Positions 2,709-21,045 of a DNA stretch of 64,000 nt are shown here, one piece after another; the stretch's first letter is position 1, and every line of letters starts with the position of its first letter. This stretch comes from Bacteroidota bacterium (GTDB taxonomy: Bacteria > Bacteroidota > Ignavibacteria > Ignavibacteriales > SURF-24). Location: NCBI GenBank assembly GCA_050258935.1, contig JBLMZS010000042.1, forward strand, positions 12,778 to 76,777. Direction: 5' to 3'. The notes under the pieces were generated by a model. The model saw nothing but the letters and a program-made list of their open reading frames with translations, searched no databases and was not told the origin of the DNA. The position numbers were made by a program, and so were the translations under genes.

Positions 2709-3779
2709 ATGAAAAAATATTATTACGACCTAACGGAGGTACTGATGAAATTTTATAAATATATGTTCTTTTTATTGATTATTACTGTGCTATCAGGCGG
2801 TTATTCCTATTTACCGGCCCAGATCGAGAAGAAGGCTCAGGTTGGATTCAGGTTTTTGGAAAACCCGGTTTCAGCTGAAGTAGCCGGCCGCGGTCAGGTC
2901 GGAATAACCACTACTTATAATTCAAACGGTATATTCTGGAACCCCGCACTGCTCGGCCTGATACAGAGCAACTACGACCTGAGCCTGAATCATACTTCTG
3001 GTATTGCAGATATTGATTATAACGCACTTGCTGCAACTGTAAAACTTGGTAATGCAGGTGTGCTCGGCTTCAGTCTTCTGGCAATGGACTATGGCGACTT
3101 CTATGGTACAGTCAGAGCCGGAAATTCACAGGGATATACTGAAACCGGTACATTTTCACCGACAGCTTTTGCTGCTGGTATAGCTTTTTCTCAGGCTGTT
3201 TCTGATAAATTTTCATATGGTATTCATCTGAAATATGTCTATCAGGACCTCGGAGAAGCTTACATCGCAACATCCGGCAGCGTTGATTCGGGTCTTGTGC
3301 TCGATAAAAGGAAATACTCATCGAGTAATCTGACACTTCCCTTCGCTATAGATGTCGGCGCATACTACGATTTCCAGTACAATGGAATCAAGTTCGGAGC
3401 TGCACTGCAGAATATTTCAAAAGAGTTCAGATATGAAAATGAAAAATTTCCGATGCCGTTTTCTGTAAATTTCGGCCTTACTGTCGAACCTCTCGGATTC
3501 TTCGACATTCATGACAAAGACCATAATCTCATGGTATGTGCTGAAAGCCGCCACCCAAGGGATTTCGGTGAGAAAACAAAATTCGGTGCTGAATATAAGT
3601 ATATGGATATGTTTATCGCCAGAATCGGTTACATGACAAACTATGACGGCAGGGATATTACAGCCGGACTGGGTGTAAGATACAACCTTTCAGGTGTACC
3701 GCTCAGAATAGATTATGCTTATGAACCGTACGATATTTTTGGAGATGTTCATTTCCTGTCGCTTGGAATAAGCTACTAA
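2709..3779 (+). CDS. PorV/PorQ-family-like outer-membrane beta-barrel protein
   Basis: 356-aa ORF starting 3 bp after the previous stop. It has a hydrophobic leader (an alternative start at MKFYKYMFFLL, nt 2745, is possible). The N-terminal signature is FRFLENPVSAEVAGRGQVGITT...GIFWNPALLG. Gly/Tyr/Phe-rich alternating strands end ...VHFLSLGISY (aromatic terminus). Confidence 0.55.
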   Translation: MKKYYYDLTEVLMKFYKYMFFLLIITVLSGGYSYLPAQIEKKAQVGFRFLENPVSAEVAGRGQVGITTTYNSNGIFWNPALLGLIQSNYDLSLNHTSGIADIDYNALAATVKLGNAGVLGFSLLAMDYGDFYGTVRAGNSQGYTETGTFSPTAFAAGIAFSQAVSDKFSYGIHLKYVYQDLGEAYIATSGSVDSGLVLDKRKYSSSNLTLPFAIDVGAYYDFQYNGIKFGAALQNISKEFRYENEKFPMPFSVNFGLTVEPLGFFDIHDKDHNLMVCAESRHPRDFGEKTKFGAEYKYMDMFIARIGYMTNYDGRDITAGLGVRYNLSGVPLRIDYAYEPYDIFGDVHFLSLGISY

Positions 3780-3780
3780 T

Positions 3781-3822
3781 AAAAAAAGCCCCTGCATTTA
3801 CTGTGCAGGGGCTTTTCTATTT
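3781..3822. terminator. Bidirectional rho-independent terminator between convergent genes
   Basis: aaaaaaa-GCCCCTGCA-tttactgt-GCAGGGGC-ttttctatttt: a GC-rich stem of about 8 bp (gcccctgc/gcaggggc) flanked by an A-run and a T-run. Confidence 0.8.
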
Positions 3823-3836
3823 TCTTATAACGAACA

Positions 3837-4382
3837 TTACCTTTTTACTTTTTTCCAGTTGAACATCCATGGATCTGACTTTCTGCCGGGAGCTATATCA
3901 CTGTGCCCCAGAACATATTTAATTTTATACTTGCTTTTCAGCTCATCTATTAGTCCGTTCAGTGAATCATACTGCGCTTCGTTTGGGCCGCACTGCATCG
4001 TATTGACCAGCTCTATACCTATTGATGATGCATTTACATTTGTATCCCCATTGGGCAGTCGGCTGCGTCCAGCATGATAAGCTATATCTGAATCTTTTAC
4101 CAGCTGATATATATTGCCCTGCCGGTCTATGATATAGTGAGCTGACACACCGTAATTCTCATATTCCTTAAGCACACCTTTCACACTGAACGTATCTACA
4201 TCGAGTGCATTATACGATGAATGTATTATTATAGAAGAAATCTGTCTTTTTTCAGCTGCCTTATGACCATAAGGCACGTGGTTTGAAATTATTTTAATAT
4301 CTTTTTCGGGTTTCATGGCTAAAATATCCCCCGGCACACCCGAAAATGCCATAAACAGGGGCAACAACAATAATTTTCTCAT
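3837..4382 (-). CDS. N-acetylmuramoyl-L-alanine amidase (Amidase_2/PGRP/AmpD-like), secreted
   Basis: Motifs IIIHSSYN, VSAHYIIDRQGNIYQLV, IAYHAG, IGIELVN and LGHSDIAPGRKSDPW are typical of the zinc amidase_2 fold. I prefer the ATG at 4382 (MRKLLLLPLFMAFSG signal peptide) over the GTG-extended ORF reaching 4433. Confidence 0.8.
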   Translation of the reverse strand: MRKLLLLPLFMAFSGVPGDILAMKPEKDIKIISNHVPYGHKAAEKRQISSIIIHSSYNALDVDTFSVKGVLKEYENYGVSAHYIIDRQGNIYQLVKDSDIAYHAGRSRLPNGDTNVNASSIGIELVNTMQCGPNEAQYDSLNGLIDELKSKYKIKYVLGHSDIAPGRKSDPWMFNWKKVKR

Positions 4383-4629
4383 ATTTTTATACCGGAATTC
4401 CTGTACTATTGAAATTACTAAATAAATCAGCACTACATGTACTTCTATGACATCGCTGAATTTTTACAAAAATATCATTTCAGTTGACAATCCGCAAATA
4501 CATATCTTCAATTATACCGGGTAAAATTCCGTACCTGATACAAACCGAACATTTTAAAAAGTAGTGCGTCTAATCAAAGGTAAGAAATAATTTTAGTCTT
4601 AACAATTTTACAATATAACAGGAGCCGTC

Positions 4630-6690
4630 ATGATTTTTGATAAAAAATCATTCACCGTTCTATTTCTTTTTCTACTATCAGTGCTGTCATTTAGTATGCC
4701 CACTGAAAACCCCGTTCTCCATCCGTTGAATCAGGCAATTGATTTCAAGTCTATCACTGCCCGTGATATTTCTTCAGCAACAGATGAAGTACTCGCTGCT
4801 TCTAAAAATGCTCTGGAGAAAATCTACAGTATCCCGAAAGAAAAACGGACATATTACAATTCTCTGCTGGCACTGGATGACATATACAACAACGTTTCGG
4901 GCGTACAGAGCATTGTAAATCTGATGCTTAACGTTAATCCTGACGAATCGGTACGCAATGCATGCAAGGAGGCACAGACAAAGCTGGACGCATTCAACAA
5001 CAACATCGCGCTCGATGAGACGCTCTACAACGCTCTGAAGCAGTACTCAAAGAGTGCTGATGCAGGTACGCTCAGCAAGCCAAGGAAAAAATTCCTGAAT
5101 GAGACAATACAGGAATTTGAGAGATCAGGTTTCAGGCTCCCGGCAGAAAAAAGAGCTTCGCTGAAAGATGTACAGAACAAACTTTCTGAACTCTCCATGC
5201 GCTTTGCTACTAATATAGCTGAATACAGTGATTCTCTTGTACTTGATGAATCCGGCATGGCCGGATTGCCTGATGACTATAAAAATGCCCGCCGTCGTTC
5301 TGACGGCAAATACGTAATTGATATGAGCTACCCCTCATACTTTCCTTTCATGCGTCTTGCCAAATCAGATGAGGCAAGGAAATCTCTGTATACAAAATTT
5401 CTGAACATTGCATCGGATAAAAACATCTCACTGCTAAAAGAAATATTATATAACCGGAAAGTACTCTCATATATACTTGGATACCAGACTTATGCTCAGT
5501 ATGCACTTGAACCAAGAATGGCTCAGAATGCAAAGAATGTCTGGGAATTCGAAGATAACCTGATTGCTAAGCTGAGACCGAAGGCGGAAAAGGATTTCAA
5601 CGAACTTATCCAGGTTAAACGAAAAGTTACAAATGACCCGGCGGCAACTGCTATCCAGCCCTGGGAGGCGGCTTATTACAGAAATATTCTTCTGAAGGAT
5701 AATTATAGTCTGGATCCCGAGCTGGTGAAGGAATACTTCAGTGTTGATGATGTGATCAGCGGTATGTTTAAGACGGCGCAGCATCTTTTTGATATACAGT
5801 TCAGGCAGGTCGATAATGCATCTGTATGGCATAAGGATGTAAAAATGTATGAAGTCATTGATAATGATAAAGTAATTGCCCGTTTTTATTTGGATCTTTA
5901 CCCACGCGACAACAAATTCAACCATGCTGGCTGTTTTAATATACTGAAAGGAAAATCTACTTCACAGGGTTATCAGCTGCCAGCGGTTGCACTCGTATGC
6001 AATTTCCCTGCTGCAACATCAGATAAACCTGCACTAATGCCACATTCAGACGTTACAACATTTTTCCATGAATTCGGTCATGCACTTCATGCAGTATTAA
6101 CCCAGTCTGAACTCAGTGCTTTTTCTGGTACTTCGGTATCTATGGATTTTGTTGAAACCCCGTCACAGATATTTGAGAACTGGGCCTGGAATTATGATGT
6201 CCTCAAGACATTTGCTCATCATTACAAGACCAGAGAGCCGCTTCCCGAAGACCTCTACCGCAAAATGATAGACACAAAAAATGTTACGAGCGGTATTATG
6301 ACTCTCTATCAGGTTCTTTATGGTGAGATAGATATGACACTGCACGACCATTTTAATACAAAAGGATCTCTGACGACTACTGATATAGTGCGAGAGCTGC
6401 ACAATAAGATACTCCCATATCCTTTCACTGAAGGTACAAATTTCGAAGCAGGATTCGGTCACCTCATTGACTATGCTGCTGGCTACTATAGTTACCTTTG
6501 GGCTGAAGTCTATGCACAGGACATGTTTTCCATATTTGAACAGAACGGAGTAATGGACAAGCAGACCGGCAGAAGGTTCAGGGAACAGGTGCTAGCAAAA
6601 GGTTCAACAGAAAAAGAGAGCGATATAGTTAGAACTTTTCTGCAGCGCGAACCCAAACAGGATGCATTCCTTAAATCACTGGGACTTTAA
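4630..6690 (+). CDS. M3-family zinc metallopeptidase (oligopeptidase / peptidyl-dipeptidase Dcp-like), secreted
   Basis: 686 aa with a signal peptide. HEFGHALH is the HExxH zinc site, with a downstream ETPSQ glutamate region typical of the thimet oligopeptidase family. AGGAG lies upstream of the ATG. Confidence 0.85.
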   Translation: MIFDKKSFTVLFLFLLSVLSFSMPTENPVLHPLNQAIDFKSITARDISSATDEVLAASKNALEKIYSIPKEKRTYYNSLLALDDIYNNVSGVQSIVNLMLNVNPDESVRNACKEAQTKLDAFNNNIALDETLYNALKQYSKSADAGTLSKPRKKFLNETIQEFERSGFRLPAEKRASLKDVQNKLSELSMRFATNIAEYSDSLVLDESGMAGLPDDYKNARRRSDGKYVIDMSYPSYFPFMRLAKSDEARKSLYTKFLNIASDKNISLLKEILYNRKVLSYILGYQTYAQYALEPRMAQNAKNVWEFEDNLIAKLRPKAEKDFNELIQVKRKVTNDPAATAIQPWEAAYYRNILLKDNYSLDPELVKEYFSVDDVISGMFKTAQHLFDIQFRQVDNASVWHKDVKMYEVIDNDKVIARFYLDLYPRDNKFNHAGCFNILKGKSTSQGYQLPAVALVCNFPAATSDKPALMPHSDVTTFFHEFGHALHAVLTQSELSAFSGTSVSMDFVETPSQIFENWAWNYDVLKTFAHHYKTREPLPEDLYRKMIDTKNVTSGIMTLYQVLYGEIDMTLHDHFNTKGSLTTTDIVRELHNKILPYPFTEGTNFEAGFGHLIDYAAGYYSYLWAEVYAQDMFSIFEQNGVMDKQTGRRFREQVLAKGSTEKESDIVRTFLQREPKQDAFLKSLGL

Positions 6691-6750
6691 TATTCATTTT
6701 ATTTCTGATTAGTGCCTCACCATGATAGTTGTACTATCCACTATGAAGAT

Positions 6751-6782
6751 GGCAAGGTCTTTAAAGGCCTTGCCTTTTTTTT
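6751..6782 (+). terminator. Rho-independent terminator after the M3 peptidase gene
   Basis: GGCAAGGTCTTT/AAAGGCCTTGCC is a near-perfect 12-bp inverted repeat followed by tttttttt. Confidence 0.75.
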
Positions 6783-6896
6783 ATCTGGCCAGCCAGTATA
6801 TTTAATAACAAATTCACGTTGATGATTTATACTATTTTCTGTTTTTATTTTTTTAATTTTCGCTATATTTAATGCAATATTTTTAGGGATATTAAC

Positions 6897-7817
6897 ATGG
6901 ACAGAAGAGAATTTTTCAAGAAAAGTCTGCTGGCTGCAGCTGCAGCTACATACGGCACTCAGACATTTGCAAATATTCTTCCGCTGGCGGAAAAATACAC
7001 ATCTAAACAGGCATACGATCTCGTTGCATTGAAAGGCGGAATGCCCGATGCGATGTTTGATAAAGGTATTGCCGCACTGGGCGGAATGAAGAACTTTGTA
7101 AAAAAAGGCCAGACTGTCGTTGTAAAACCCAACATTGGCTGGGATGTTTCACCGGAAAGAGCTGCTAATACAAATCCTCTTCTCGTAAAGAGAATCATTG
7201 AACACTGTTATAATGCTGGGGCAAAAGAGGTGCTTGTATTCGACCACTCGTGTGATAACTGGGTTAAATGCTATTCGACCAGCGGTATCGAAAAAGCTGT
7301 AAAAGATGCAGGCGGCAAAATAGTTTCCGGAGGTCAGGAAAGCTATTATCAGGAAGTAAAAATATCCGGAGCAAAAACGATAAAAAAGGCGAAGGTACAT
7401 GAACTTATACTATCTTCTGATGTATTCATAAATGTTCCAATACTGAAACACCACGCTTCAGGCCGCCTGACCGTCTCCATGAAGAATCTTATGGGCATTG
7501 TATGGGACAGAGGTTTCTGGCACCAGAATGATCTGCACCAATGCATAGCGGAATTCTCAATGTACAGGAAACCAGATCTGAATATTGTCGATGCATACAA
7601 TGTCATGACAAAACATGGTCCCCGCGGCGTTTCCAAATCTGACCTCATAAATCTCAAATCGCAGATAATTTCGACAGATATGGTTGCTGCGGATGCTGCT
7701 TCAGCGAAGCTGTTCGGAATAGAACCTGATGAAGTCAATTATATTAAAATTGCCGATCAGCTGAAAATTGGCCGCAAAGACCTGAATAAACTGAATATCA
7801 AAAGAATAAAGATATAA
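6897..7817 (+). CDS. DUF362 domain protein with a twin-arginine (TAT) signal
   Basis: N-terminus MDRREFFKKSLLAAAAATYG has an RR motif plus a hydrophobic region. DUF362-like blocks are VVVKPNIGWD...ANTNP, EVLVFDHS and IISTDMVAADAASAKLFG. Confidence 0.7.
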   Translation: MDRREFFKKSLLAAAAATYGTQTFANILPLAEKYTSKQAYDLVALKGGMPDAMFDKGIAALGGMKNFVKKGQTVVVKPNIGWDVSPERAANTNPLLVKRIIEHCYNAGAKEVLVFDHSCDNWVKCYSTSGIEKAVKDAGGKIVSGGQESYYQEVKISGAKTIKKAKVHELILSSDVFINVPILKHHASGRLTVSMKNLMGIVWDRGFWHQNDLHQCIAEFSMYRKPDLNIVDAYNVMTKHGPRGVSKSDLINLKSQIISTDMVAADAASAKLFGIEPDEVNYIKIADQLKIGRKDLNKLNIKRIKI

Positions 7818-7850
7818 TACATATAGTAATAATCCGGGCACAGAGTTAAG

Positions 7851-9371
7851 ATGCACTATTTTAAGAAAGCAAGGGTATTGATCTCGACACTGGTTTTCAT
7901 TTCAGCATTACTGATATTTGCAGATTTTACCGGTTCACTTCCAGCTGGTCTCTATAAGGTCACCACATGGTTTCAGTTTATTCCTGCGCTGCTAAAGCCG
8001 GCTTTGGGTTTTGCCGTAATAATTGGGATTACCTTTATTGCAGGAAGAATTTACTGTTCATTTCTCTGCCCGCTCGGATACCTACAGGACCTGCTGATAA
8101 GAGTACGCATTGGAAAGAAAAAAAGGAAATTTAAATATCTTCAGCCTTCAGTATGGGTCCGTTATTCCATACTTACGCTGACTGGTTTATCTTTGCTTTC
8201 CGGTACTGCATTCGTGATTATTCTTCTGGATCCATACAGTAACTTTGGACGCATTGTTTCCGGTCTGCTAAGACCGCTGCTCATCTTTGTGAACAATCAG
8301 GCATCTGCCGGTCTCGAAAATCTTCAGTATTATTTCCTGTATCCTTATGACCTCAAAGGTATCACTATTCTGACTGCTGTATTTCCATTGTCTGTATTCA
8401 TTCTGCTTATCTATCTTTCTGTAAAATATGGGAGGATTTATTGCAATCTTTTGTGTCCGGTTGGTACATTCCTGGGGTTAATTTCCAGAATTTCTTTCTT
8501 CAGAATTTACATAGATGAATACAGGTGCAAACAATGCGGTGTATGTGAAGTAAAATGTAAGGCTAACTGTATCAGTATAAAAGACAAGAGTATAGATTTT
8601 TCGAGATGTGTGATGTGTTTCAACTGTCTGGATGTCTGTCCTTCCGGCGGAATTAAAACCGGCAGGCTCAGTCGCAGATCAGATGTCAGTGTACCGGAAA
8701 AGACAGACATTAAAAAGCGCGAATTCATTAAAAACACATTGATGTATTCTGCAGGACTTAGTGCATTTTCTTTCAGTGCACAGAAAGCAATTCCTGATAA
8801 TCTTAAGAAGCGGACACCGGTAACACCTCCCGGATCATCTAGTCTGGATCATTTCCATTCTTCCTGTACTGCGTGTCATTTATGCGTAAGCAGCTGTCCG
8901 ACACAGGTACTGCAGCCATCGTTTCTGGAGTACGGTTTTACTGGTATGCTTCAGCCCAGAATGAACTATATCAGTAGTTTCTGCAATTACGACTGCAATA
9001 TTTGTACAACAGTCTGCCCTACCGGTGCTCTCAGGGAAACTGATATTGAAAGCAAAAAACTCATTCAGCTTGGACGTGCAGTTTTCACAAAGCATAACTG
9101 CATAGTATATACGAATAATACAGACTGCGGTGCCTGCTCAGAGCATTGTCCGACAAAAGCTGTTACAATGAAACCATATGGCAAGGATTTGTTCATCCCT
9201 GAAGTGCGCGCTGGATTCTGTATCGGCTGCGGTGCGTGTGAGTATGCATGCCCGGCCAGCCCTAATAAGGCAATTATAGTGGAAAGCAACAAGGTACATC
9301 AGATAGCCAGGAAACCGGTAGAAGAAACTCCGGATAAAACTCGTCCGTCACAGGAGGATTTCCCGTTCTAG
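7851..9371 (+). CDS. Membrane-bound polyferredoxin (NapH/MauN-like N-terminal domain plus multiple 4Fe-4S motifs)
   Basis: Several N-terminal TM helices carry CSFLCPLG and CNLLCPVG. These are followed by six cluster motifs: CKQCGVCEVKC, CVMCFNCLDVCP, CTACHLCVSSCP, CNYDCNICTTVCP, CGACSEHCP and CIGCGACEYACP. Confidence 0.75.
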   Translation: MHYFKKARVLISTLVFISALLIFADFTGSLPAGLYKVTTWFQFIPALLKPALGFAVIIGITFIAGRIYCSFLCPLGYLQDLLIRVRIGKKKRKFKYLQPSVWVRYSILTLTGLSLLSGTAFVIILLDPYSNFGRIVSGLLRPLLIFVNNQASAGLENLQYYFLYPYDLKGITILTAVFPLSVFILLIYLSVKYGRIYCNLLCPVGTFLGLISRISFFRIYIDEYRCKQCGVCEVKCKANCISIKDKSIDFSRCVMCFNCLDVCPSGGIKTGRLSRRSDVSVPEKTDIKKREFIKNTLMYSAGLSAFSFSAQKAIPDNLKKRTPVTPPGSSSLDHFHSSCTACHLCVSSCPTQVLQPSFLEYGFTGMLQPRMNYISSFCNYDCNICTTVCPTGALRETDIESKKLIQLGRAVFTKHNCIVYTNNTDCGACSEHCPTKAVTMKPYGKDLFIPEVRAGFCIGCGACEYACPASPNKAIIVESNKVHQIARKPVEETPDKTRPSQEDFPF

Positions 9372-10525
9372 AAATTTGCAGCGTGTTCGGTTCCTAAGAA
9401 GAGTTCACAAACCGAAAGGATTTCATCGAGCGAAATCTCTGCATCCAGATTGTCCGCAAGTGACATAACAACTTTATCTTCGGGGAAGATCACCAGATAT
9501 GCCTTGCTGCCGCATGGCGAGCCGACATGGTATACAAACCGCCGCCCGCTTTTATCAGTACCGGTACTCCAGCCGAGGCCATAACCTGTTTTAGTACCAT
9601 CTGAGAGTGTCAGCGATGTAAACAATAATTCCCTTGTAACAGGACTGATAATTTTATTCTCCAGAAGCCCATTTCCAAAACGCAGCATATCTGTACATGT
9701 CGAAACGAATCCTCCCCCGCCCCACTTATTCGAATTATCAACCTGGGGCGATTCGGTTACATTATTTTTCCACAATGTATAACAGCCTGCCTTGCCTTCA
9801 ATGGATCTGTCACTGTAATCAGGTTCAGTACATTTCATATCAAGCACATCGAATATATTCTGTTGCATGAAGTCCAGGAAATTCACGCCAGAAGCTTTTT
9901 CAATTACTTCGCTGAGAAGCGAATAGCCGTAAGTAGTATAAAGATATTTTGTGCCGGGCCTGAATAAAAGCGAATCATTCATGAATATGCTAAGAGACTC
10001 CATCACGCTTTTATATCTGATGTTGCTGGCAAATTCACCCCTGGAATAATCATAACTGCGTATACCTGCCAGATGGCCGGCCAGCTGTTTTACTGTAAAC
10101 GGATATTGTTTTTCCGGAAACTCCGGCACATAGTATCTCACCTGCTGGTTGAGATCAATTTGCCCCTTTTCATACAAGTTCCCGAGTGCCACGGAAGTAA
10201 AGGACTTTGACACACTTCCAACCCTGAATTTTGTATTCAGTTTCACCGGAGTCATTTTCTTTTTGTCAGCTATACCGAATCCCTCGCACCATATGAATGA
10301 AGAGTTCTTCGAGACCGCAACAGACAGTCCGGGAATCCTCTTTTCGTGCATATATTCCAGAATTTTGCCTCTTGCAGCAGGTATAATACCTGTATGTTTT
10401 ATTGTGAATGAGGAATCCTCATAGCTTCTCTGATCTTCCGGCAACGGAAGCACCTGACCGTAAAGAATTGAAAAGGAAAAGATAAAAGTGACGAAGCAAA
10501 GTGACAGAAACGGATGATTTTTCAT
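9368..10525 (-). CDS. Serine hydrolase / class C beta-lactamase-family protein, secreted
   Basis: 385 aa with a signal peptide. SVSKSFTS is the SxxK active-site motif. YSLLS (a YxN-like region) and a beta-lactamase/transpeptidase-like layout are present. Its stop overlaps the convergent polyferredoxin stop by 4 nt. Confidence 0.8.
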   Translation of the reverse strand: MKNHPFLSLCFVTFIFSFSILYGQVLPLPEDQRSYEDSSFTIKHTGIIPAARGKILEYMHEKRIPGLSVAVSKNSSFIWCEGFGIADKKKMTPVKLNTKFRVGSVSKSFTSVALGNLYEKGQIDLNQQVRYYVPEFPEKQYPFTVKQLAGHLAGIRSYDYSRGEFASNIRYKSVMESLSIFMNDSLLFRPGTKYLYTTYGYSLLSEVIEKASGVNFLDFMQQNIFDVLDMKCTEPDYSDRSIEGKAGCYTLWKNNVTESPQVDNSNKWGGGGFVSTCTDMLRFGNGLLENKIISPVTRELLFTSLTLSDGTKTGYGLGWSTGTDKSGRRFVYHVGSPCGSKAYLVIFPEDKVVMSLADNLDAEISLDEILSVCELFLGTEHAANF

Positions 10526-10600: not shown

Positions 10601-12322
10601 TTATTTCTGTTTCATTAGTTTCAGTATCTGTGCAATTATCTCTGAGCGCAGTTTATCAAGATCACCGCTTGTATCAACAGATGAAACAAACCGCTCTGCC
10701 GCCGTTACATCCCTTCCTCTGGATTTTAGTTTATCTATCATATCCAGTAGTGTTGACAGGTAGCGCATATCATCAACACCTTCTCTGAAACCTTCCCATT
10801 GTATCGTTGAAATAAGTCCATCTGAAAGAGGGTAAGTAAATGTTTCTTCCCGGTAGCGTTTGTTGTCAAAATCATTCCATATACTGTTATAATTTTTCTG
10901 ATAGGCATAATCCATTGCACCGTCATATCCTGCCTGCCATAAAGCTATACCAAAGTTCCTGCGGTAGACCTCCGGGTTCTCCTGCCCCACCTGCGGATTA
11001 GAATATGAAAATATTTTTTTACCCCTTGAATGATATTTCCTCGCCTGCGAAGGATTCAGTTCACCAAACATCACTGCGACATCCAAAATATCCCCGACAA
11101 TATCAAACGCATCATGATAGCATGCTACAAAAATTCCTGCCCCCGAAGCCCGCGCGGCTGACCAGGCAGGCCTTTGTGCCGCAAGCTTCCGGCCTGAGGC
11201 CTCATCAATTCCATATATGTGCAGGTTCCTGTATCCGTGCTTGCTGAGCACTGAATTAAATGCTGCGATTCTCTCCTTCAGTTTGTCAGTATCCTGAATC
11301 TCTCCTTCCTTTACACTAAACCAGTTCAGCAGTGTGCTGAACATGTAATCACCGGGAAGACCGACCTTATTCCTTATTCCGAGATTACGTGCAAGCAGAT
11401 CGGCGTCCTGATAATTATTAGGATACATAATGCCGTGTTCCTTCATATCTCTTAGTTCAATTTCCAGCTGTTTTTCTGTTTTATCCTCACAGTGGAATGC
11501 CCTGAGCTTTGAACTTCTCAGGCATCCGTGATAGTAAATGGAATACATTATTCTGGACTCATTAAGATCAAATGGCAGAACAGTCAGTTCCACCGGTACA
11601 GACAGAGTATTATCGTTTCCGTATTTGATTTTAATTCTGCCTCTGTAGAGTCCGCTTACAGCATTATCCGGGATATGGAAAGTAAGCCATAGCTGTTTAT
11701 AAATTTTCTCTTCAACTGTAAACGGTTTCAGTTCGTCTGAATCTTCTATTACCACATTATCCGGAAACCTGGCCGAAGGATCACTGATATTTATATATTC
11801 GCTCGTGCCGGACGAATTTTTCACAAGCAGGTAATTTGATTTGCTTTCATAGTCGGTCTGCACCAGCTTGTCATTTTTTATAAGCAGTTCTCCTACGAGA
11901 AGTCTCTGATTTGTCTGGTTAGATTTCACTCCAGACTGATACCATGCCTTTACAACCGATACATCGAGTATATCTAAAGGCAGAGAATTACTTCCGGAAG
12001 TGAACTGACTCCATGTTACTTTAACGCTTTCAAGTTTCCGCTGAGGTACGAGTATGAATGTAAATGGTTCATATTCACCCCTGGCCGCACGGATCTTCAC
12101 AGTGGTAAGTTTTTGCATCCTGTTCGGATATTCAAAACCGTCCAGTTTGTTTTCTTCAGTCGCCGGGAAAGTATAGAGTAATACCGGGGCATCGGAGTTT
12201 TGAATTTTACCGATACCTGCAGTCAGCCATGATATTATGTTTTTCTGAGTAACAGCAAAATTCATTATGGCAGAGACCGCAATTATTGACGACAGATAAA
12301 ATCTCACTATACCAATTCTCAT
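10601..12322 (-). CDS. Glycoside-hydrolase-like protein (DUF4091-type), exported
   Basis: 573 aa with an N-terminal hydrophobic anchor. AARGEYEPFTFILV and the C-terminal WEGFREGVDDMRYLSTL resemble signature blocks of DUF4091-containing putative glycosidases. It starts 14 bp after the WecA-like gene. Family call is by eye. Confidence 0.5.
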   Translation of the reverse strand: MRIGIVRFYLSSIIAVSAIMNFAVTQKNIISWLTAGIGKIQNSDAPVLLYTFPATEENKLDGFEYPNRMQKLTTVKIRAARGEYEPFTFILVPQRKLESVKVTWSQFTSGSNSLPLDILDVSVVKAWYQSGVKSNQTNQRLLVGELLIKNDKLVQTDYESKSNYLLVKNSSGTSEYINISDPSARFPDNVVIEDSDELKPFTVEEKIYKQLWLTFHIPDNAVSGLYRGRIKIKYGNDNTLSVPVELTVLPFDLNESRIMYSIYYHGCLRSSKLRAFHCEDKTEKQLEIELRDMKEHGIMYPNNYQDADLLARNLGIRNKVGLPGDYMFSTLLNWFSVKEGEIQDTDKLKERIAAFNSVLSKHGYRNLHIYGIDEASGRKLAAQRPAWSAARASGAGIFVACYHDAFDIVGDILDVAVMFGELNPSQARKYHSRGKKIFSYSNPQVGQENPEVYRRNFGIALWQAGYDGAMDYAYQKNYNSIWNDFDNKRYREETFTYPLSDGLISTIQWEGFREGVDDMRYLSTLLDMIDKLKSRGRDVTAAERFVSSVDTSGDLDKLRSEIIAQILKLMKQK

Positions 12323-12336
12323 TTCAAATTTCTTTG

Positions 12337-13995
12337 TCAGTTAAACATCAGAAATAGTATTGCCGTAAACGGCAGTGCGAAAGAAGCATAGAACAGGTAA
12401 CCGGCCATGCTGCTTTTTATAGTAATTATTACTTTATACCAGAGATAAAATATAAATGCCTGCAGGAAACTCGCACTAAAATAATTGTCAAAATCAAACC
12501 GTATAAAACTGTTGACCACAATGGTCAGCAAAATAAATACAACTACAGTAAGATCTATTCCATTGAGTATCATTCGCTTTACGCTGAACAGTTTTTCTCC
12601 TCCAAGTATAAACAGAACTATTATAACAGCCAGAGAATAATAACTCATTTCTATTATACGGTTTCCACTAACCGAAGGCATCAGATAATTCATTACTGCA
12701 GGAGTATTCAGGTTTGTAATTGTAAAGAATGCCGACAGGTTTATAAATGTATATATATCGCTAATATCTCTGGACCGTTTCTGATGCCCATAGGCCAGTA
12801 TGAGCAAAATGATGCCAATGACAAAGAATACAACAAGGACCTGCTTGTTGAGTGTACTGGATCTCGGGAATGATGAAAATACAATCACGCTGATCATAAG
12901 AGAAGAAAAAATAATGAGTACTTTCTCTGCATAGTGAAAATATTTATTTGGAATACTTCTTATTGGTTCAATCTCTCGCGAAATTCTCAGTGTCGGCCTG
13001 ATCCTGTTGAGTATAGGTTCAATAAACAGCAGAAGCAGAATTAAGAAAAAAAACAATGCAAGTGGAACGACACGGTCATATTTTATATAATACAATGCCA
13101 GCATTATGAAAAGCACAGTAATACTTTCAATTACAAATACAGTAAATTTATGTGATATATTCTTCGAACTGATAATATGGTGCAGATGAGTATTGTCCGG
13201 CAGGAATGGGTTTTTTCTTCTTATGATACGGGTAAACATTACCCTGACTGTATCAGCTGCCGGTACTGCCATAAGCATTGCCGGAAACGACAGGTCCAGA
13301 ACACCGTTATTGTAATTTATGCTTGTCAGAAGCGAGGCTACAACCAAAAAAAAACCAAGTGACAAAGAACCGGTATCACCGAGAAATATTTTAGCAGGAA
13401 ACGCATTGAATTTTAAAAATCCGAATATACTGCCCATCAGACTGCACGATAATATGAGAAGAAATGTATCGTACGACAAAATTGCCAGCGACAGTATTAT
13501 AGAGAATACGAGTAGCGAAAACCCGCTTACCAGTCCATCCATTCCATCTAACAGATTAATGGAATTGATACTGCCAAGAATAAACATCACAAGTACGGCA
13601 TAATCGAATGGGAAAGGAATATAAACTTCGAAGAGTCTCATGGAATCATATCTCGGAGCAAGATATATAAGCAGTAAAACTGCAGCCAGAGTCTGCAGCA
13701 GAAACTTTACCGAATACTCCAGTCCGAGCATGTCGTCAAATATACCTACGAGCAATATTATATTAGCCGCAATAATGATCAGCCTTATGGAATTCAGGTC
13801 CTTGTAAAATGAGATTATCATTACAGAAGCCACCATGAAAATCAGCAGCCCACCCATTCTTGGAATCACCTCATTGTGAATCCTCCTTTTTCCGGGCAAA
13901 TCGACGACATTTGATTTTTTAAGATACGCAATAAAATATGGAGTAAAAAAAATAGTAAATATAAGGCTCGTAAAGAATATCAATAGAAAATTCAT
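12337..13995 (-). CDS. Polyprenyl-phosphate HexNAc-1-phosphate transferase (MraY/WecA family, GT4 fold) with a long C-terminal membrane extension
   Basis: Motifs NVVDLPGKRRIHNEVIPRMGG, IFDDMLGL, NLLDGMDGL and FLGDTGSLSLGF. The ORF is 552 aa, with roughly the last 190 aa forming additional TM helices beyond the usual family core. Confidence 0.8.
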   Translation of the reverse strand: MNFLLIFFTSLIFTIFFTPYFIAYLKKSNVVDLPGKRRIHNEVIPRMGGLLIFMVASVMIISFYKDLNSIRLIIIAANIILLVGIFDDMLGLEYSVKFLLQTLAAVLLLIYLAPRYDSMRLFEVYIPFPFDYAVLVMFILGSINSINLLDGMDGLVSGFSLLVFSIILSLAILSYDTFLLILSCSLMGSIFGFLKFNAFPAKIFLGDTGSLSLGFFLVVASLLTSINYNNGVLDLSFPAMLMAVPAADTVRVMFTRIIRRKNPFLPDNTHLHHIISSKNISHKFTVFVIESITVLFIMLALYYIKYDRVVPLALFFFLILLLLFIEPILNRIRPTLRISREIEPIRSIPNKYFHYAEKVLIIFSSLMISVIVFSSFPRSSTLNKQVLVVFFVIGIILLILAYGHQKRSRDISDIYTFINLSAFFTITNLNTPAVMNYLMPSVSGNRIIEMSYYSLAVIIVLFILGGEKLFSVKRMILNGIDLTVVVFILLTIVVNSFIRFDFDNYFSASFLQAFIFYLWYKVIITIKSSMAGYLFYASFALPFTAILFLMFN

Positions 13996-15279
13996 CTATA
14001 CCAAATCCTTTGCTTTCGTAACTGCCACGGGTACTTCATATACTAAGATTTTATTGACGGTGGCAGATTTTATTATATCGAGATATTTTGAAGCCAGCAT
14101 TCCCCTGTCGAAATTTTTTCGCACAAATTCATATCCGTTATTACCATGTGCTTCCCTGTCAGACGGAGTGTTTATGTAGTAGAGCAGTTTTTCGGCAAGG
14201 TCAGTCTCATTTTCCGGCTCAAAGAATAACCCGCTTTCTGATGATTCGACTATATTTCTGCTTTCACCGTTAACACCAATAAGCAGCGGTTTTCTCATTA
14301 TCATTCCTTCAAACATTTTAGAAGGAATAACTGTATTGAACAACGGATCATTTTTCAGGTGCACAATGAACACATCCAGACTTTTTATTATTGCGGGAAT
14401 CTGTGATTTTGTCTGAATCGGAAATATTTTTATATTATCCAGGTTTTTTGCTCGTATCTCTTTTTCCAGTTTTTCTCTCTCTGCTCCTGATCCAACGATA
14501 AGGTACCTGATATTCAGATGTCTTGTTATTTCTGCGGCACGTATAAGAGTACCGATGGAATGAGCCATTCCAATTGTACCTATATAGCCTGCGGCAAAGC
14601 TTTCACCCAGAAATTTTTTAATTTCAGTATTCAGCGTTTCATTATTGTCTTCGAACATATCTGTAGAGACACCGTTAAATATGACCTCAATTTTCTTTTG
14701 GTCAATTCCTTTTTCCACCAGATAATCACTGAATGAATTTGTGACCGGTACAATTCTGTCTGCAGCATTGTACAGGCTTAATTCAAGCCTCTGCAGCAGG
14801 CGGATAATTCGTCTGTTCTTTATAGCACCGACCGCAATAATAGATTCCGGCCACAGGTCGCGCAATTCAAGTATGAAAGGTTTTCTTCTTATTGATGCAG
14901 CATATCTGCCGGCCAGTGCACAAAAAAACTGGGGTGTAGTCGCAATGAGTATGTCGAATTTTATTCCGGAGATCACTACGTACATAATGGCTGCGAACAT
15001 GTAGATAATGTAGTTGAGACTCCGCAATACGAAGCCTTCATTGGGGGTTATAAATGTCCAGAGTCGTATTACGTCTATTCCGTTGTACTTTTCTTTCTGC
15101 CACAGCCTGTTCCTGTAACCCGGGAACAGTTTACCGTCGGGATGATTTGGGAAATTTGTAATTACGGTCACATCAATGTCTTTTATCCATAACCGCGCAT
15201 GTTCATACAGCCTGTTAGCCGGTGCATTGACCTCTGGCGGGAAATAGTGAGAAAAAAAAAGTACACGTTTCCTGTTCAT
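13996..15279 (-). CDS. Glycosyltransferase family 4 (WcaI/WbuB-like)
   Basis: N-terminus RVLFFSHYFPPEVNAPANRLYEHARLW and C-terminal PSKMFEGMIMRKPLLIG are typical of WcaI/WbuB-type GT-B enzymes. It abuts the next gene with no gap. Confidence 0.75.
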   Translation of the reverse strand: MNRKRVLFFSHYFPPEVNAPANRLYEHARLWIKDIDVTVITNFPNHPDGKLFPGYRNRLWQKEKYNGIDVIRLWTFITPNEGFVLRSLNYIIYMFAAIMYVVISGIKFDILIATTPQFFCALAGRYAASIRRKPFILELRDLWPESIIAVGAIKNRRIIRLLQRLELSLYNAADRIVPVTNSFSDYLVEKGIDQKKIEVIFNGVSTDMFEDNNETLNTEIKKFLGESFAAGYIGTIGMAHSIGTLIRAAEITRHLNIRYLIVGSGAEREKLEKEIRAKNLDNIKIFPIQTKSQIPAIIKSLDVFIVHLKNDPLFNTVIPSKMFEGMIMRKPLLIGVNGESRNIVESSESGLFFEPENETDLAEKLLYYINTPSDREAHGNNGYEFVRKNFDRGMLASKYLDIIKSATVNKILVYEVPVAVTKAKDLV

Positions 15280-15368
15280 TGTTTTGCCCCTCCTTTATTA
15301 TTAAGGTAAATAGTTTTGGCAAATAATCAAGTACAGGCAGTATATTTCCGGTATTCATCCGTACATTG

Positions 15369-17588
15369 TTAAGCCGGAACACGAATATTCTTGTTCTGCG
15401 GAACAGAGTTCACATACAGCATTTTGTTCAACCGCAGTGATTCCCTTATAGTAAAGACAGTTTCCATACCGCAAATGATTTCTTCAAACGGTATAGGCGA
15501 AGTACCGTTTCTGAACGCGGTTATTACTTCATCCAGCATTTGCCTCTGCCCTTTATCCTGGTTAGAAGACCTGATTTTTTTTACTTTCTTCGCACCATGA
15601 AGCTCAAGAGTTCTGAAATCATCCATGGCAGCTGCCCGGTTATCACCATATACTTCCAACCTTTCCTTTGAGTATGACCTCGTGCCAATTGTATTATATA
15701 TCAGAGTTCCTGTTGATCCGTTGGTAAAAGTAATAATTATACTCAGATTGTCGTCATCTTTTGCAGCAGAGCTGTTCAAGGGCATAGATCTGGCAAAAAC
15801 CGTTTCAGGTACACTCCCGCATATAAATATCATTGTATCTATGAAATGGCACATCTCACCAATAAGCATACCGGCTCCTTCATCTCTGTCATGAATCCAT
15901 GAGTCCATCTGCATTTCTCCTGCATTCACACGGTATATCATTTGTTTAGGTGAACCGTGTTGAAAGTGATCTCTGGCCAGCCTGATCATATTTGAAAAAC
16001 GTCTGTTCAGTCCTGTCATTATGACTGCCGGAGTGGCTGTCTGTTCCGTGCTGGCGACAATATCAGCAAGCTGTTCTTCTGTTACTGCAATAGGTTTTTC
16101 AACAAATACATTTTTCCCCGCTGAAACTGCCCTGATAACATACTCTGCATGGGTGGAATGTCGGGTGACAATAAATACTGAATCCGTATTCTCATCTTCA
16201 ATAACTTTTGCAGCATCAGATGATGAAAATCCGAAACCGAATCTCTCTGACTTTTGCAATGCATTATTCCCTGTGGCGGTTGCAAGTCCTGTCAGAATTA
16301 CTGATTTATTTTCTTTGATATATGGTAACAGATGCAGCGTAGCATAACTGCCTGCCCCAATAAATCCAGCACGGCAGATCTCTCTGTGACCGCCCTGCCG
16401 CAGTTTATTCAGCGACATGTAATTTTTTATCCGTGAATTTAATACCAGATCGTTCTGGCTTTTATGAATGTCATACTTCAAAAGTATTCCAATATACCTG
16501 TCATTGCCGGATTTGATCAGATCATATGCCGAAAGCGATTCCTCCATAGCGTATTCATGAGTGGTCAGAATTTTTGTATTCAGTTTGTTTTCTGCCATCA
16601 GCTGAAGAACCGCCTGCATATTTCTTTTTTCAGTCCATCTTACGAACTCATATGGATAATCGATACCGCCTTCCTCGTAAGAATAGTCATATCTTCCCGG
16701 TCCATACGACATAGAAACCTTCAGTCCGAGTTCCTTTTTGTAATATATATCCCTGGGTATTTTCATACCCACCATTCCGACAATGATGATTTTTGCTTTT
16801 CTTCTGGCAGCTTCGCCGGCCATTTTCACCGGCTCATCGCTTTTTGTTGAGGCAGTTATAAATACATTATCAACTCCATAGCCTCCGGTGAAACGCATTA
16901 CCTTATCTGCAGCATATTCTTCAGGGATCAGTATCTGTTCATCCATACCGAGACCCATTGCTGTTTCAATCTTAAAACGGTTATGGTCAACTCCGATTAC
17001 CCTTAGTCCGTTTGCCTTTAGCATCTGTACTAACAGTAATCCGACCAGTCCCAATCCAATAACCATAGCCGATTCTCCCAGCTGAGGTTTTGCCAGTCTT
17101 AGCCCCTGTAATGCAATACTGGCTACCGTGGTATATGCAGCATCTTCAAATGATACATTCGCGGGTATCTTCACGGCCAGATTTTCCGGTACATAATTTA
17201 TTTCTGCATGATTGGCATACCCGGCACCGGCAATTGCAACGCGGTCTCCTCTTACGAATCCTTCAGTATCTCTGCCGGTTTCTTCAACAATTCCCGCCGC
17301 ACTGTATCCCAGAGGTGATGGTCTTTCCATTCTTGAGGAAATATTGTTATATGTATTAACCCAGCCTTCTTTTCTTGCCTTTGCAACTATCTGCCTGACC
17401 AGATCCGGTCTGGATCTGGCTTTGCCGATAATGCTTTTTTCGGCTAGTTCTATGATCGATTTTTCAGTCCCGGCACTTATCAATGAGTTAACTGTACGTA
17501 CAATTATCCCTTTATTTCTATTCATCGGAGGAGGTACCTCTTTCAGGCTGATTTCACCATTTCTTATGTTCTGAAGTATTTGCAGCAC
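15369..17588 (-). CDS. Bi-domain oxidoreductase (N-terminal MDR/alcohol-dehydrogenase-like domain plus C-terminal Gfo/Idh/MocA domain)
   Basis: The N-half has an MDR-like fold with the Rossmann motif VIGLGLVGLL. The C-half has GFIGAGSYATLHLLP and FVEKP, typical of Gfo/Idh/MocA NAD(P)-binding domains. 739 aa in one frame. Confidence 0.75.
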   Translation of the reverse strand: MLQILQNIRNGEISLKEVPPPMNRNKGIIVRTVNSLISAGTEKSIIELAEKSIIGKARSRPDLVRQIVAKARKEGWVNTYNNISSRMERPSPLGYSAAGIVEETGRDTEGFVRGDRVAIAGAGYANHAEINYVPENLAVKIPANVSFEDAAYTTVASIALQGLRLAKPQLGESAMVIGLGLVGLLLVQMLKANGLRVIGVDHNRFKIETAMGLGMDEQILIPEEYAADKVMRFTGGYGVDNVFITASTKSDEPVKMAGEAARRKAKIIIVGMVGMKIPRDIYYKKELGLKVSMSYGPGRYDYSYEEGGIDYPYEFVRWTEKRNMQAVLQLMAENKLNTKILTTHEYAMEESLSAYDLIKSGNDRYIGILLKYDIHKSQNDLVLNSRIKNYMSLNKLRQGGHREICRAGFIGAGSYATLHLLPYIKENKSVILTGLATATGNNALQKSERFGFGFSSSDAAKVIEDENTDSVFIVTRHSTHAEYVIRAVSAGKNVFVEKPIAVTEEQLADIVASTEQTATPAVIMTGLNRRFSNMIRLARDHFQHGSPKQMIYRVNAGEMQMDSWIHDRDEGAGMLIGEMCHFIDTMIFICGSVPETVFARSMPLNSSAAKDDDNLSIIITFTNGSTGTLIYNTIGTRSYSKERLEVYGDNRAAAMDDFRTLELHGAKKVKKIRSSNQDKGQRQMLDEVITAFRNGTSPIPFEEIICGMETVFTIRESLRLNKMLYVNSVPQNKNIRVPA

Positions 17589-17599
17589 TTTGTATTCCT

Positions 17600-19897: not shown

Positions 19898-19914
19898 TTT
19901 AATTTTCCCTTATG

Positions 19915-21045
19915 TTATGCTGCTATAGAATTTTCTGTGCTGTCCAATTCAGCTCCGTACACCACATCGCGGTAGAGCATCAGGTATCTGCTTGTACATT
20001 GTTCGATATCAAATTGAGGAATTTTCCTGACAGACATTTCCGAGTACTGTTTCCTGAGCACAGGATCGTCAATCAGCCTGAGAATTTTTTCTGCCAGTGA
20101 ATTCTTATCCTCTTTGACTGCAAGTTCCCCATTGACGCCATCACTTATTATTTCATGATTGCTTCCGACATCAGTGGCAACTATCGGGATTCCTGAAGCC
20201 ATCGCTTCGAGCAGTGCTATCGACAGTCCTTCCCAGCGCGATGACAGAACAAATATATCGTGCGATGCCAGAAGTTCCGGAATATCCTTTCTCACGCCCA
20301 TAAATTCAATATAACCGGTCATTCCGAGCTTTTGCGTCTCTTTTCTGAGTATCTTCTCCAAAGGTCCCGTGCCCACTATATCTAAGACTGGTACTCTTCT
20401 TCCATGCTTCAACAGTTCTTCGGCTACTATTGAATATGCATTAATAAGAGTTATATGATCTTTCTGGTGATTCAGTCTTCCTATGTTTAATATATGTTTT
20501 ACTTCCTTTCTGAAGTATCTGTGGCACCTGAATTTATCTGCATTGATTCCATTGAATATAAGAGTGACCCTGTCCTCAGGTAATTTTAGTATTCTCAGTA
20601 TTTCGTCTTTGCACTTTGTCGAAATAGCAACAAAGCGGTCCGCAGTACTTCTGGCAAGTATCTTCTGCAGCAGTGGATATTCTATTACGGTATTGTGAAT
20701 AGTCTGAACAAGTCCGAATTTCATCAGTAATCTTGCTGAGGCCACATAAAATGTTGCGAGTTCGGAATGTGTGTTAATTATATCCGGGTTTTTCTCTCTG
20801 ATAAGCCGGAATATCCTTTTTATAACCCAAAAACGCTGCTTTCCGGGCGTTTTGCCAATTATAGTGTAGCCGACATTCTTATTAAGCAGTTCGGCAATGA
20901 AATCAGTTTCAAACTGCGGATCCTCCGCCTTGCCGATTGCCCATACTTCAACTTTTGCCTCACCAGTACTTCTTATTGCCATATCTTTTATCAGTACCTC
21001 TGCTCCTCCTGGTCCGAATGAGGAAATAACATGAACGATTTTCAT
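19915..21045 (-). CDS. Glycosyltransferase family 4 (group 1)
   Basis: MKIVHVISSFGPGGAEVL N-terminus and the E-x7-E motif SRWEGLSIALLEAMASGIPIVATDVGS. Confidence 0.8.
   Translation of the reverse strand: MKIVHVISSFGPGGAEVLIKDMAIRSTGEAKVEVWAIGKAEDPQFETDFIAELLNKNVGYTIIGKTPGKQRFWVIKRIFRLIREKNPDIINTHSELATFYVASARLLMKFGLVQTIHNTVIEYPLLQKILARSTADRFVAISTKCKDEILRILKLPEDRVTLIFNGINADKFRCHRYFRKEVKHILNIGRLNHQKDHITLINAYSIVAEELLKHGRRVPVLDIVGTGPLEKILRKETQKLGMTGYIEFMGVRKDIPELLASHDIFVLSSRWEGLSIALLEAMASGIPIVATDVGSNHEIISDGVNGELAVKEDKNSLAEKILRLIDDPVLRKQYSEMSVRKIPQFDIEQCTSRYLMLYRDVVYGAELDSTENSIAA

Follow-up and report, generated by a model that had tools for sequence, protein, structure and literature searches.

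The NapGH and NosGH systems carry electrons from quinol to the periplasm. A related polyferredoxin (PFD) family, in which NapH-like and NapG-like parts are fused, has been described as holding three cytoplasmic and four periplasmic clusters and as requiring joint insertion by the Sec and twin-arginine translocation (Tat) pathways (Tooke et al. 2017, PMC5449189). Because the fifth transmembrane segment of PFD (TM5) is only weakly hydrophobic and is followed by positive charges on its C-terminal side, Sec releases it and Tat carries out its insertion (PMC5449189). That study addressed PFD biogenesis alone; it named no partner or function, and the term DUF362 is absent from it. DUF362 and LarA_N (DUF2088) both belong to Pfam clan CL0471 (PMC11770544), and the users of nickel-pincer cofactors listed as of 2026 are LarA homologues, the NPAD-dependent ornithine cyclodeaminase and NphT (PMC13524815). 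Here we analyse a 64-kb stretch of a Bacteroidota contig (JBLMZS010000042.1; "the window" means this whole stretch), in which a DUF362 gene (A) is followed by a PFD gene (B). The reading we favour, with a probability of roughly 0.55, is that A is a periplasmic oxidoreductase dependent on the nickel-pincer nucleotide (NPN) and wired to the membrane through B. The two open reading frames (ORFs) and their spacer, whose length agrees with the 33 bp given in an initial annotation of the window, are:

6897-7817, forward strand: ORF A, 306 amino acids (aa), a DUF362 protein with a predicted LarA-like fold, the predicted periplasmic catalytic subunit
7818-7850, forward strand: A-B spacer, 33 nt, in which no terminator-like site was detected; fits co-transcription
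7851-9371, forward strand: ORF B, 506 aa, a polytopic polyferredoxin (PFD), by architecture a NapH-NapG fusion

To place the pair, we compared loci in three sets: one genome per species, giving 80 loci with 57-73% identity to A (set 1); 51 metagenome contigs from a clade about 40% identical to A, each with at least 1.2 kb downstream of DUF362 (set 2); and six distant representatives with usable flanks (set 3). Homologues of A number in the thousands, at about 65-75% identity and across phyla, and in the same genomes A is better conserved than B (about 70% versus about 50% identity). A PFD gene lies directly 3' of DUF362, on the same strand and after a gap of 8-270 nt, in 76 of the 80 set-1 loci, which come from Ignavibacteriota, several Bacteroidota orders, Desulfobacterota, Competibacteraceae and Kryptoniota. 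Of the four remaining loci, one runs into a contig end, one has a Uma2-like gene inserted between the two genes (L035), and two truly lack PFD (L024, L045). In the distant clade of set 2, PFD is directly downstream in 46/51 contigs, and in set 3 the pairing recurs in five of six, four of them with a fused PFD and one with a split form, and L093 departs from it. When all flanking ORFs of both large sets were clustered, DUF362 and PFD alone proved conserved, with no third gene. The initial annotation had proposed a self-contained electron conduit of the cell envelope and had named a lack of synteny in other genomes as a reason to give the idea up. Near-obligate synteny and the lack of a third conserved gene support the proposal, and we regard A-B as very probably an envelope redox module.

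The loci that depart from this pattern show two arrangements. In L035, a Competibacteraceae metagenome-assembled genome, the Uma2-like gene (a putative endonuclease, 6838-7437) stands between the DUF362 and PFD genes; since L045, which has no PFD gene, carries a gene similar to it, disruption by a mobile gene is suggested. L093 (1770-4353) has two tandem DUF362 genes without an adjoining PFD gene, and beside them lie genes for a CBM_4_9 protein, a GDPD phosphodiesterase and a cupin. Taken with the extracellular DUF362-CBM9-dockerin proteins on record (PMC5742341), L093 hints at carbohydrate-related extracytoplasmic DUF362 enzymes that do without the wire. One further protein, P0245 (778 aa), was considered as a PFD-DUF362 fusion and ruled out, its N-terminal part being PMT_2-like; its DUF362 domain (541-738) lies behind this PMT_2-like (glycosyltransferase-39-type) membrane region, in either a real fusion or a gene-calling artefact. 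A search of the window for a second DUF362 copy found none.

The assignment of A to DUF362 in the initial annotation was borne out by Pfam (PF04015, 172.4 bits against a cut-off of 24, E 1.6e-50), with residues 74-270 aligned to positions 1-199 of the 200-position profile. That annotation had also taken DUF362 to be without established function. We likewise found no functional study of DUF362 in the literature searched, and there no publication linking DUF362 to NPN or NPN to Tat; the family is nevertheless not blank, given its place in the LarA clan and its LarA fold. An AlphaFold2 model of A (predicted local distance difference test score, pLDDT, 95.2) was compared with the PDB using Foldseek, and ranks 1-19 were all LarA-family NPN enzymes (probability 1.00, E 1.3e-7 to 1.8e-5; matches include 9Q3J, 9Q3K, 9EID, 7S91, 8EZH, 2YJG, 4NAR, 6C1W and 5HUQ). 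The alignments span about 265 columns, with a query-normalised TM-score of up to 0.54, and the LarA family accounts for all significant structure matches. At the sequence level, genuine Ni-dependent lactate racemases (the Loigolactobacillus LarAs P0394, P0395 and P0398) score about 26 bits against the DUF362 profile, LarA residues 82-245 matching profile positions 18-171. As these true LarAs exceed the gathering threshold of 24, the DUF362 and LarA families of Pfam overlap in sequence. By these comparisons A appears homologous to LarA while lying outside the LarA family as Pfam models define it, and the modelled structure portrays DUF362 as a small LarA with a LarA-type fold.

The same comparisons point to candidate active-site residues. 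Taking as reference the L. plantarum LarA sequence, which is identical to 5HUQ_A, hhalign runs with 3 and with 123 LarA sequences gave an identical local alignment of A 167-196 on LarA 155-184. This alignment places H186 on H174 and K196 on K184. Pfam profile coordinates agree to within one position, with A K196 at about 121 and H186 at about 111, and LarA K184 at about 120 and H174 at about 110. H209 of A falls in the profile range expected to hold LarA H200, an equivalence that is drawn from spacing only. K196, H186 and H209 are each conserved in at least 90% of 76 diverse Tat-DUF362 sequences and are invariant in the distant clade; among the same 76 sequences no cysteine is conserved across the wider family, from which it follows that A would have no Fe-S site of its own. 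Because the hidden Markov model (HMM) and hhalign comparisons are each weak, the residue mapping rests on the agreement of several weak lines. The codons concerned are:

7452-7454, forward strand: His186, proposed equivalent of the LarA catalytic His174, from hhalign and Pfam coordinates
7482-7484, forward strand: Lys196 (MKN motif), proposed equivalent of LarA Lys184, the NPN thioamide tether
7521-7523, forward strand: His209, proposed equivalent of the LarA nickel ligand His200, from spacing and profile coordinates

Two other searches of the PDB with A were uninformative: a single-sequence search gave no match, and a profile search gave one short-chain dehydrogenase at E 0.83, which we judged a chance hit. 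The top NCBIfam match of A was the cyanobacterial 'Npun_F2552 family', at 71 bits far under its cut-off of 500. NPN synthesis is reported for cyanobacteria, most of which lack LarA (PMC11796402), and their DUF362 proteins may be candidates for the missing NPN users.

In relatives of the pair, lar genes are found next door. In 20 of the 80 set-1 loci larC is directly beside the pair, and of these 20, 16 also have larB and 13 have larE, with a number of contigs too short to display them. The family calls are clear of their thresholds (LarC: PF01969, E 1e-146, and TIGR00299, 218 bits, cut-off 90; LarB, 301 bits versus 175; LarE, 280 bits versus 150). Seventeen Bacteroidales/Bacteroidota loci have the lar genes (larB-larE-larC where complete) divergent from DUF362, at a distance from the start of A of 19-310 nt in the loci measured, with one exception of 967 nt (L072). 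Three Competibacteraceae loci have larC on the same strand, 6-21 nt after PFD, and in L015 and L074 of this family the order A-B-larC-larE-larB runs along one strand. Linkage to lar therefore occurs in two phyla with different gene orders. No LarA-family ORF was found in any of the loci scanned. The initial annotation had identified the genes flanking the pair in the window as an M3 peptidase and a serine hydrolase and had found in them no clue to a substrate; the identities are right, whereas the flanks of relatives, with lar genes in 20/80, do provide a clue. About 15% of genomes are reported to have larBCE and no larA (PMC11796402), and a non-LarA NPN enzyme has already been found through mining of lar neighbourhoods (PMC13524815).

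Export of A is predicted from its N-terminus, MDRREFFKK, in which R3, R4 and F6 are invariant among 19 close homologues. Within the first 45 residues a strict RRxF[LIVMF] motif is present in 118/120 close homologues and in 100/130 representatives at 34-55% identity; as a control, only one of the 49 window ORFs of at least 150 aa has it, namely A. In 13 of the 130 representatives a lipobox follows the Tat motif. A relative in L085 has a weak precomputed match to the Tat-signal model PF10518, and in three divergent lineages tat genes lie inside the cluster, in the orders tatA-tatC-DUF362-PFD (L085), DUF362-NapH-like-NapG-like-tatA-tatC (L087/88) and DUF362-tatA-tatC-PFD (L094). The twin-arginine start that had been noticed in the initial annotation is thus backed by conservation of the RR motif in homologues and by the embedded tatA and tatC, and A is predicted to be exported folded through Tat. 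Candidate cleavage sites follow TFA25 or PLA31, and residues 20-40 of the model have low pLDDT, like a linker. The signal is:

6897-6989, forward strand: putative twin-arginine signal peptide of A, residues 1 to about 25-31, with RR at 6903-6908 and the h-region SLLAAAAATYG

B comprises two Fer4_5 (NapH-type) units and several 4Fe-4S dicluster domains. The polytopic character, the two CxxxCP(L/V)G motifs and the six ferredoxin-type motifs listed in the initial annotation are all present, the six being four of canonical CxxCxxCxxxC spacing (C226, C253, C339, C457) and two variants (C378x3Cx2Cx3CP and C417x8Cx2Cx3CP). All 29 cysteines are invariant in 64 homologues. The description of B as NapH-like holds for the N-terminal half and fails for the whole, since the C-terminal half is NapG/MauM-like at about 339-468. 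In NCBIfam, too, the N-terminal half is nearest NapH/MauN and residues 283-478 nearest NapG/MauM, with scores of 64.3, 53.1, 74.4 and 58.6 against cut-offs of 213, 234, 269 and 179 for the NapH (TIGR02163 / NF007013) and NapG (NF007012 / TIGR00397) equivalogs; no nap genes were found in the window flanks. By its architecture, B would be a NapH-NapG fusion of the published PFD family. An AlphaFold2 model of B is moderate (pLDDT 71.6), and with it Foldseek returned only generic polyferredoxins (FwdF, RnfB; E >= 0.008) and no solved NapH- or NapG-like structure. Along B the features, with transmembrane (TM) segments, are:

7851-8666, forward strand: NapH-like half, residues 1-272, TM segments at about 9-27, 46-64, 107-125 and 171-189, K/R-rich loops on the predicted cytoplasmic side
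8055-8078, forward strand: first CxxxCP motif (CSFLCPLG), C69, invariant in homologues
8442-8465, forward strand: second CxxxCP motif (CNLLCPVG), C198, invariant in homologues
8526-8639, forward strand: 2x[4Fe-4S] ferredoxin domain, C226...C263, predicted cytoplasmic
8706-8813, forward strand: Tat-type motif DIKKREFIK, TM5 NTLMYSAGLSAFSFSA and basic stretch QKAIPDNLKKR, read from the sequence, with the mechanism taken from PMC5449189
8865-9254, forward strand: NapG/MauM-like domain, about 339-468, predicted periplasmic, with four [4Fe-4S] motifs (C339, C378, C417, C457)
9354-9368, forward strand: C-terminal tail EDFPF, residues 502-506, with F504, P505 and F506 invariant across 64 homologues whose identity is otherwise about 50%; possible docking or sorting motif

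Hydrophobicity and charge give a consistent topology for B. The K/R-rich N-terminus, loop 65-106 (10 K+R, with the first CxxxCP), loop 190-295 (20 K+R, with the second CxxxCP and the dicluster domain) and DIKKREFIK fall on the cytoplasmic side, and the K/R-rich stretch after TM5 and the NapG-like four-cluster domain on the periplasmic side. About three clusters should accordingly be cytoplasmic and four periplasmic, by this prediction. On the Kyte-Doolittle scale TM5 scores 0.78, versus 2.07-2.51 for TM1-4. Across 121 B homologues the internal motif has K (88) or R (33) at its first position, R in 121/121, any residue, F in 113/121 and then [I/L]; on the C-terminal side of TM5, K312, K/R320 and K321 are conserved. 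A natural unfused form is found in L087/88, where a 221-aa NapH-like protein (two CxxxCP motifs only, no dicluster domain) and a 197-aa NapG-like protein are followed by tatA and tatC (L087 8897-11069). The NapG-like protein of L087 has the N-terminus MRRITRREFLK, which aligns with IKKREFIK of B; the alignment covers B from residue 287 on. Because the RR signal of this stand-alone protein aligns there, the internal KR motif of B can be regarded as homologous to a true N-terminal Tat signal.

Taken together, these observations suggest a mechanism, set out here as we infer it. A would be loaded with NPN in the cytoplasm, with Lys196 as tether and His209 as nickel ligand, in parallel to Lys184 and His200 of LarA, and the loaded protein would then be exported folded via Tat. 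Sec would insert TM1-4 of B, and Tat would translocate its four-cluster C-terminal domain with the help of its [K/R]R-x-F motif and weakly hydrophobic TM5. The outcome would be some seven [4Fe-4S] clusters in a row, three on the cytoplasmic side and four in the periplasm, through which the exported A is joined to the quinone pool or to a donor in the cytoplasm. A may dock on the periplasmic four-cluster domain; with four clusters in the periplasm, the conduit would cross the membrane inside one polypeptide. As NAD(P)H is missing from the periplasm, chemistry of that kind would be provided there by a tethered nicotinamide-like cofactor. A might interconvert C-OH and C=O by hydride-type chemistry, with a sugar or a 2-hydroxy acid among the conceivable small substrates in the periplasm, and its tethered cofactor would be re-oxidised or re-reduced through B. 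Weak hints of a carbohydrate substrate come from the DUF362-CBM9-dockerin proteins, from the CBM_4_9 gene next to the DUF362 pair of L093 and from NphT, an NPN enzyme of the aldo-keto reductase (AKR) type that acts on sugars (PMC13524815).

Several observations weigh against this reading. Within the 64-kb window, larB, larC, larE and larA were not found, nor were tatA and tatC; lar adjacency is confined to two lineages (20/80 loci), and lar genes are near the pair in 0/38 long contigs of the distant clade. The hhalign mapping of H186 and K196 is statistically weak (E ~0.2), an HMM of the Tat-DUF362 subfamily failed to detect LarA sequences, and A, which is about 150 residues shorter than LarA, has no match to Lar_N (PF09861) or LarA_C (PF21113) at E <= 0.01, where true LarAs score 250 and 234 bits. 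H117, the candidate for the second catalytic histidine (LarA H108), is conserved in the close subfamily only; LarA homologues with a single histidine do occur (PMC12611868). The generic Tat-signal HMMs (PF10518 / TIGR01409), which are short and insensitive, give no match to A at E <= 0.01. The motif of B is KR rather than RR, and RR occurs in only 27% of close homologues; a KR form of the Tat motif can be functional. A further difficulty is chemical: no NPN enzyme offers a precedent for joining a two-electron hydride cofactor to Fe-S clusters that take one electron at a time, and this hydride-to-Fe-S coupling, speculative as it is, would be a chemically new step. With these points counted, we think the use of NPN by A somewhat better supported than an even bet. 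That A is a Tat-exported mini-LarA, loaded with NPN in the cytoplasm, that founds a new class of nickel-pincer enzyme, the first to work outside the cytoplasm and to trade electrons with a respiratory-type Fe-S chain rather than hand the hydride back to the substrate, we propose more tentatively, at a little short of even odds.

An alternative of the same architecture with other chemistry would have A exported by Tat and wired to B but using a different cofactor from NPN, for instance a simple metal site or some group inserted in the cytoplasm, and would explain lar adjacency by local gene order or by a separate NPN user. The weak residue mapping to LarA leaves room for it, as does the fact that lar genes are missing from the window, from 60/80 loci and from 38/38 long distant-clade contigs, and the Bacteroidales loci offer a specific candidate in a WbqC-like gene that adjoins larB and whose product might conceivably use NPN there. 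We rejected this gene as the cause of lar linkage, because it is missing from the Competibacteraceae operons, which are tight and on one strand, and because it persists by the pair in loci without lar genes (L023, L030, L082). Local gene order fits poorly with linkage in two phyla and in differing orders, and a non-NPN cofactor with structure matches to the LarA family only and with a conserved Lys/His/His triad; an Fe-S site in A is opposed by the lack of a family-wide cysteine. We consider the non-NPN account, both parts taken jointly, unlikely, at something like one chance in a handful.

Less plausible still is that A is a redox-neutral periplasmic NPN racemase or epimerase like LarA, with B standing outside turnover and giving low-potential electrons for activation or reduction of the oxidation-sensitive cofactor. 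Comparable maintenance roles have been proposed for NosR with N2O reductase and for CcoG as a cupric reductase, and NapH-type proteins often serve periplasmic metalloenzymes. It would also fit the restriction of LarA-family catalysis to racemisation and epimerisation (other NPN-type enzymes are the hydride shuttle NphT and ornithine cyclodeaminase; PMC13524815), and the description of NPN holoenzymes as labile (PMC11796402). A seven-cluster wire kept in about 90-95% of loci over 35-70% divergence is heavy equipment for maintenance, however, and DUF362 domains elsewhere have been reported as commonly joined to Fe-S-binding domains (PMC5742341), which suggests that electron exchange is intrinsic to the family. 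That A and B are uncoupled neighbours, or that A is unexported and works inside the cell with those clusters of B that face the cytoplasm, its RR being fortuitous, is very improbable: the short h-region and the silence of the generic Tat HMMs are outweighed by RRxF in 118/120 close homologues and 100/130 representatives versus 1/49 window ORFs, by tatA/tatC within the cluster in three lineages, by the lipobox after the Tat motif in 13/130 and by synteny of 76/80 and 46/51.

The surroundings of the pair in the window bear on its transcription. Upstream is a Peptidase_M3 gene (E 9e-132) and downstream a Beta-lactamase-family serine hydrolase gene (E 9.5e-59) that is convergent to B. Two features lie between the peptidase gene and A:

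6751-6774, forward strand: hairpin resembling a terminator, 10-bp stem and T8, 3' of the M3 peptidase gene, from a consensus scan only
6785-6896, forward strand: AT-rich intergenic region, presumed home of the promoter and ribosome-binding site of the pair

The hairpin, as predicted, marks the 5' limit of a two-gene unit. Since this terminator-like hairpin follows the M3 peptidase gene and since B is convergent with the beta-lactamase-family gene, A-B has the appearance of a bicistronic unit. A single weak sigma-70-like match lies 5' of A at 6805-6833; with nine promoter-like matches in the region 6500-9700 versus a mean of 7.3 in shuffles, it is no better than chance. One transcription unit for a periplasm-facing redox enzyme and its membrane wire is the best reading of A and B.

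Farther out, the region 3' of the pair (window 10601-20000, reverse strand) encodes a GH123-like protein (weak matches). Beyond it is a polysaccharide-synthesis cluster with Glycos_transf_4 (WecA-like, its product unusually long at 552 aa), a GT4 glycosyltransferase and a Gfo/Idh/MocA-ADH fusion, an annotation that is transferred from the near-identical locus L001. On the 5' side, window 2709-4433 holds genes for a 356-aa protein and an Amidase_2 (N-acetylmuramoyl-L-alanine amidase-like) protein. The former reads from its sequence as an outer-membrane beta-barrel type, its L001 counterpart having no recorded family match, and in the near-identical contig a TonB-dependent receptor gene precedes the two. 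In 13 Ignavibacteria and Bacteroidales loci (L009, L010, L014, L018, L022, L041, L042 (5276-5794, reverse strand), L050, L052, L063, L070, L078, L079), a family of multi-pass membrane proteins of about 170 aa is encoded divergently just 5' of DUF362. Its members match no model of Pfam or NCBIfam, and the window has none of them; in size and shape they would suit a small transporter component, for niacin or a metal, for example, though this is a guess.

A-B is a combination of known parts that is itself undescribed and mechanistically unprecedented. To our knowledge only a handful of nickel enzymes are known. If A is an NPN-dependent oxidoreductase wired through B, a large DUF family would gain a function class and the orphan NapH-NapG fusion polyferredoxins a partner, and NPN biology would extend to the cell envelope and to net electron transfer. 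The same reading would help to explain some of the long-noted surplus of genomes that have larBCE and no larA, and it would give anaerobes NAD-like hydride chemistry in a compartment free of NAD(P)H. Even without NPN, the pair would stand as a very widespread, unstudied two-gene envelope redox module of anaerobes.

The closest described system for B is PFD. Like the PFD of delta proteobacterium MLMS-1 (Q1NSB0), B has by architecture five TM segments and a NapH-like half with two CxxxCP motifs and a dicluster domain. It likewise has a Tat-type motif before a weakly hydrophobic TM5, followed by basic residues and a four-cluster NapG-like domain, for about seven clusters in all; unlike in PFD, the motif is KR (PMC5449189). 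In NapGH and NosGH, similarly, a membrane NapH-type and a Tat-dependent four-cluster NapG-type subunit feed a Tat-exported periplasmic enzyme, and the split NapH-like plus NapG-like version beside DUF362 in L087/88 resembles NapGH further. B differs from these systems in lying far below their equivalog cut-offs, in having no nap or nos genes nearby and in having a LarA-like partner, not a molybdo- or copper enzyme.

A is like LarA in its Pfam clan, its structure matches, its apparent tether lysine, nickel histidine and one catalytic histidine, and in the lar genes that adjoin 25% of its loci. It is unlike LarA in its mature size (about 270 residues versus 424), its predicted export by Tat and its pairing with an Fe-S wire, and this obligatory pairing implies net redox rather than isomerisation. 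The fold of A differs from the AKR TIM-barrel of NphT, for which passage of hydride between substrates is experimentally proven (PMC13524815); that report makes no mention of a Tat signal, a periplasmic location or an Fe-S partner in NPN-type enzymes.

As a stand-alone two-gene module in which a Tat-exported cofactor enzyme would be fed by a membrane redox protein, A-B also resembles MsrPQ (YedYZ) and the fusion Sco3746, and as with MsrPQ, fused and split forms both occur (PMC5449189). MsrPQ uses molybdenum and haem b and repairs methionine sulfoxide, whereas A-B has a LarA-like fold and Fe-S clusters. A final parallel concerns the cofactor. The periplasmic glucose-fructose oxidoreductase of Zymomonas mobilis has a non-dissociable nicotinamide-type cofactor that is loaded in the cytoplasm before export by Tat, and A would likewise export a tightly bound nicotinamide-type cofactor through this pathway. 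The Zymomonas enzyme differs in having a Rossmann fold and NADP, which is regenerated by a second substrate and not by an electron-transfer chain.

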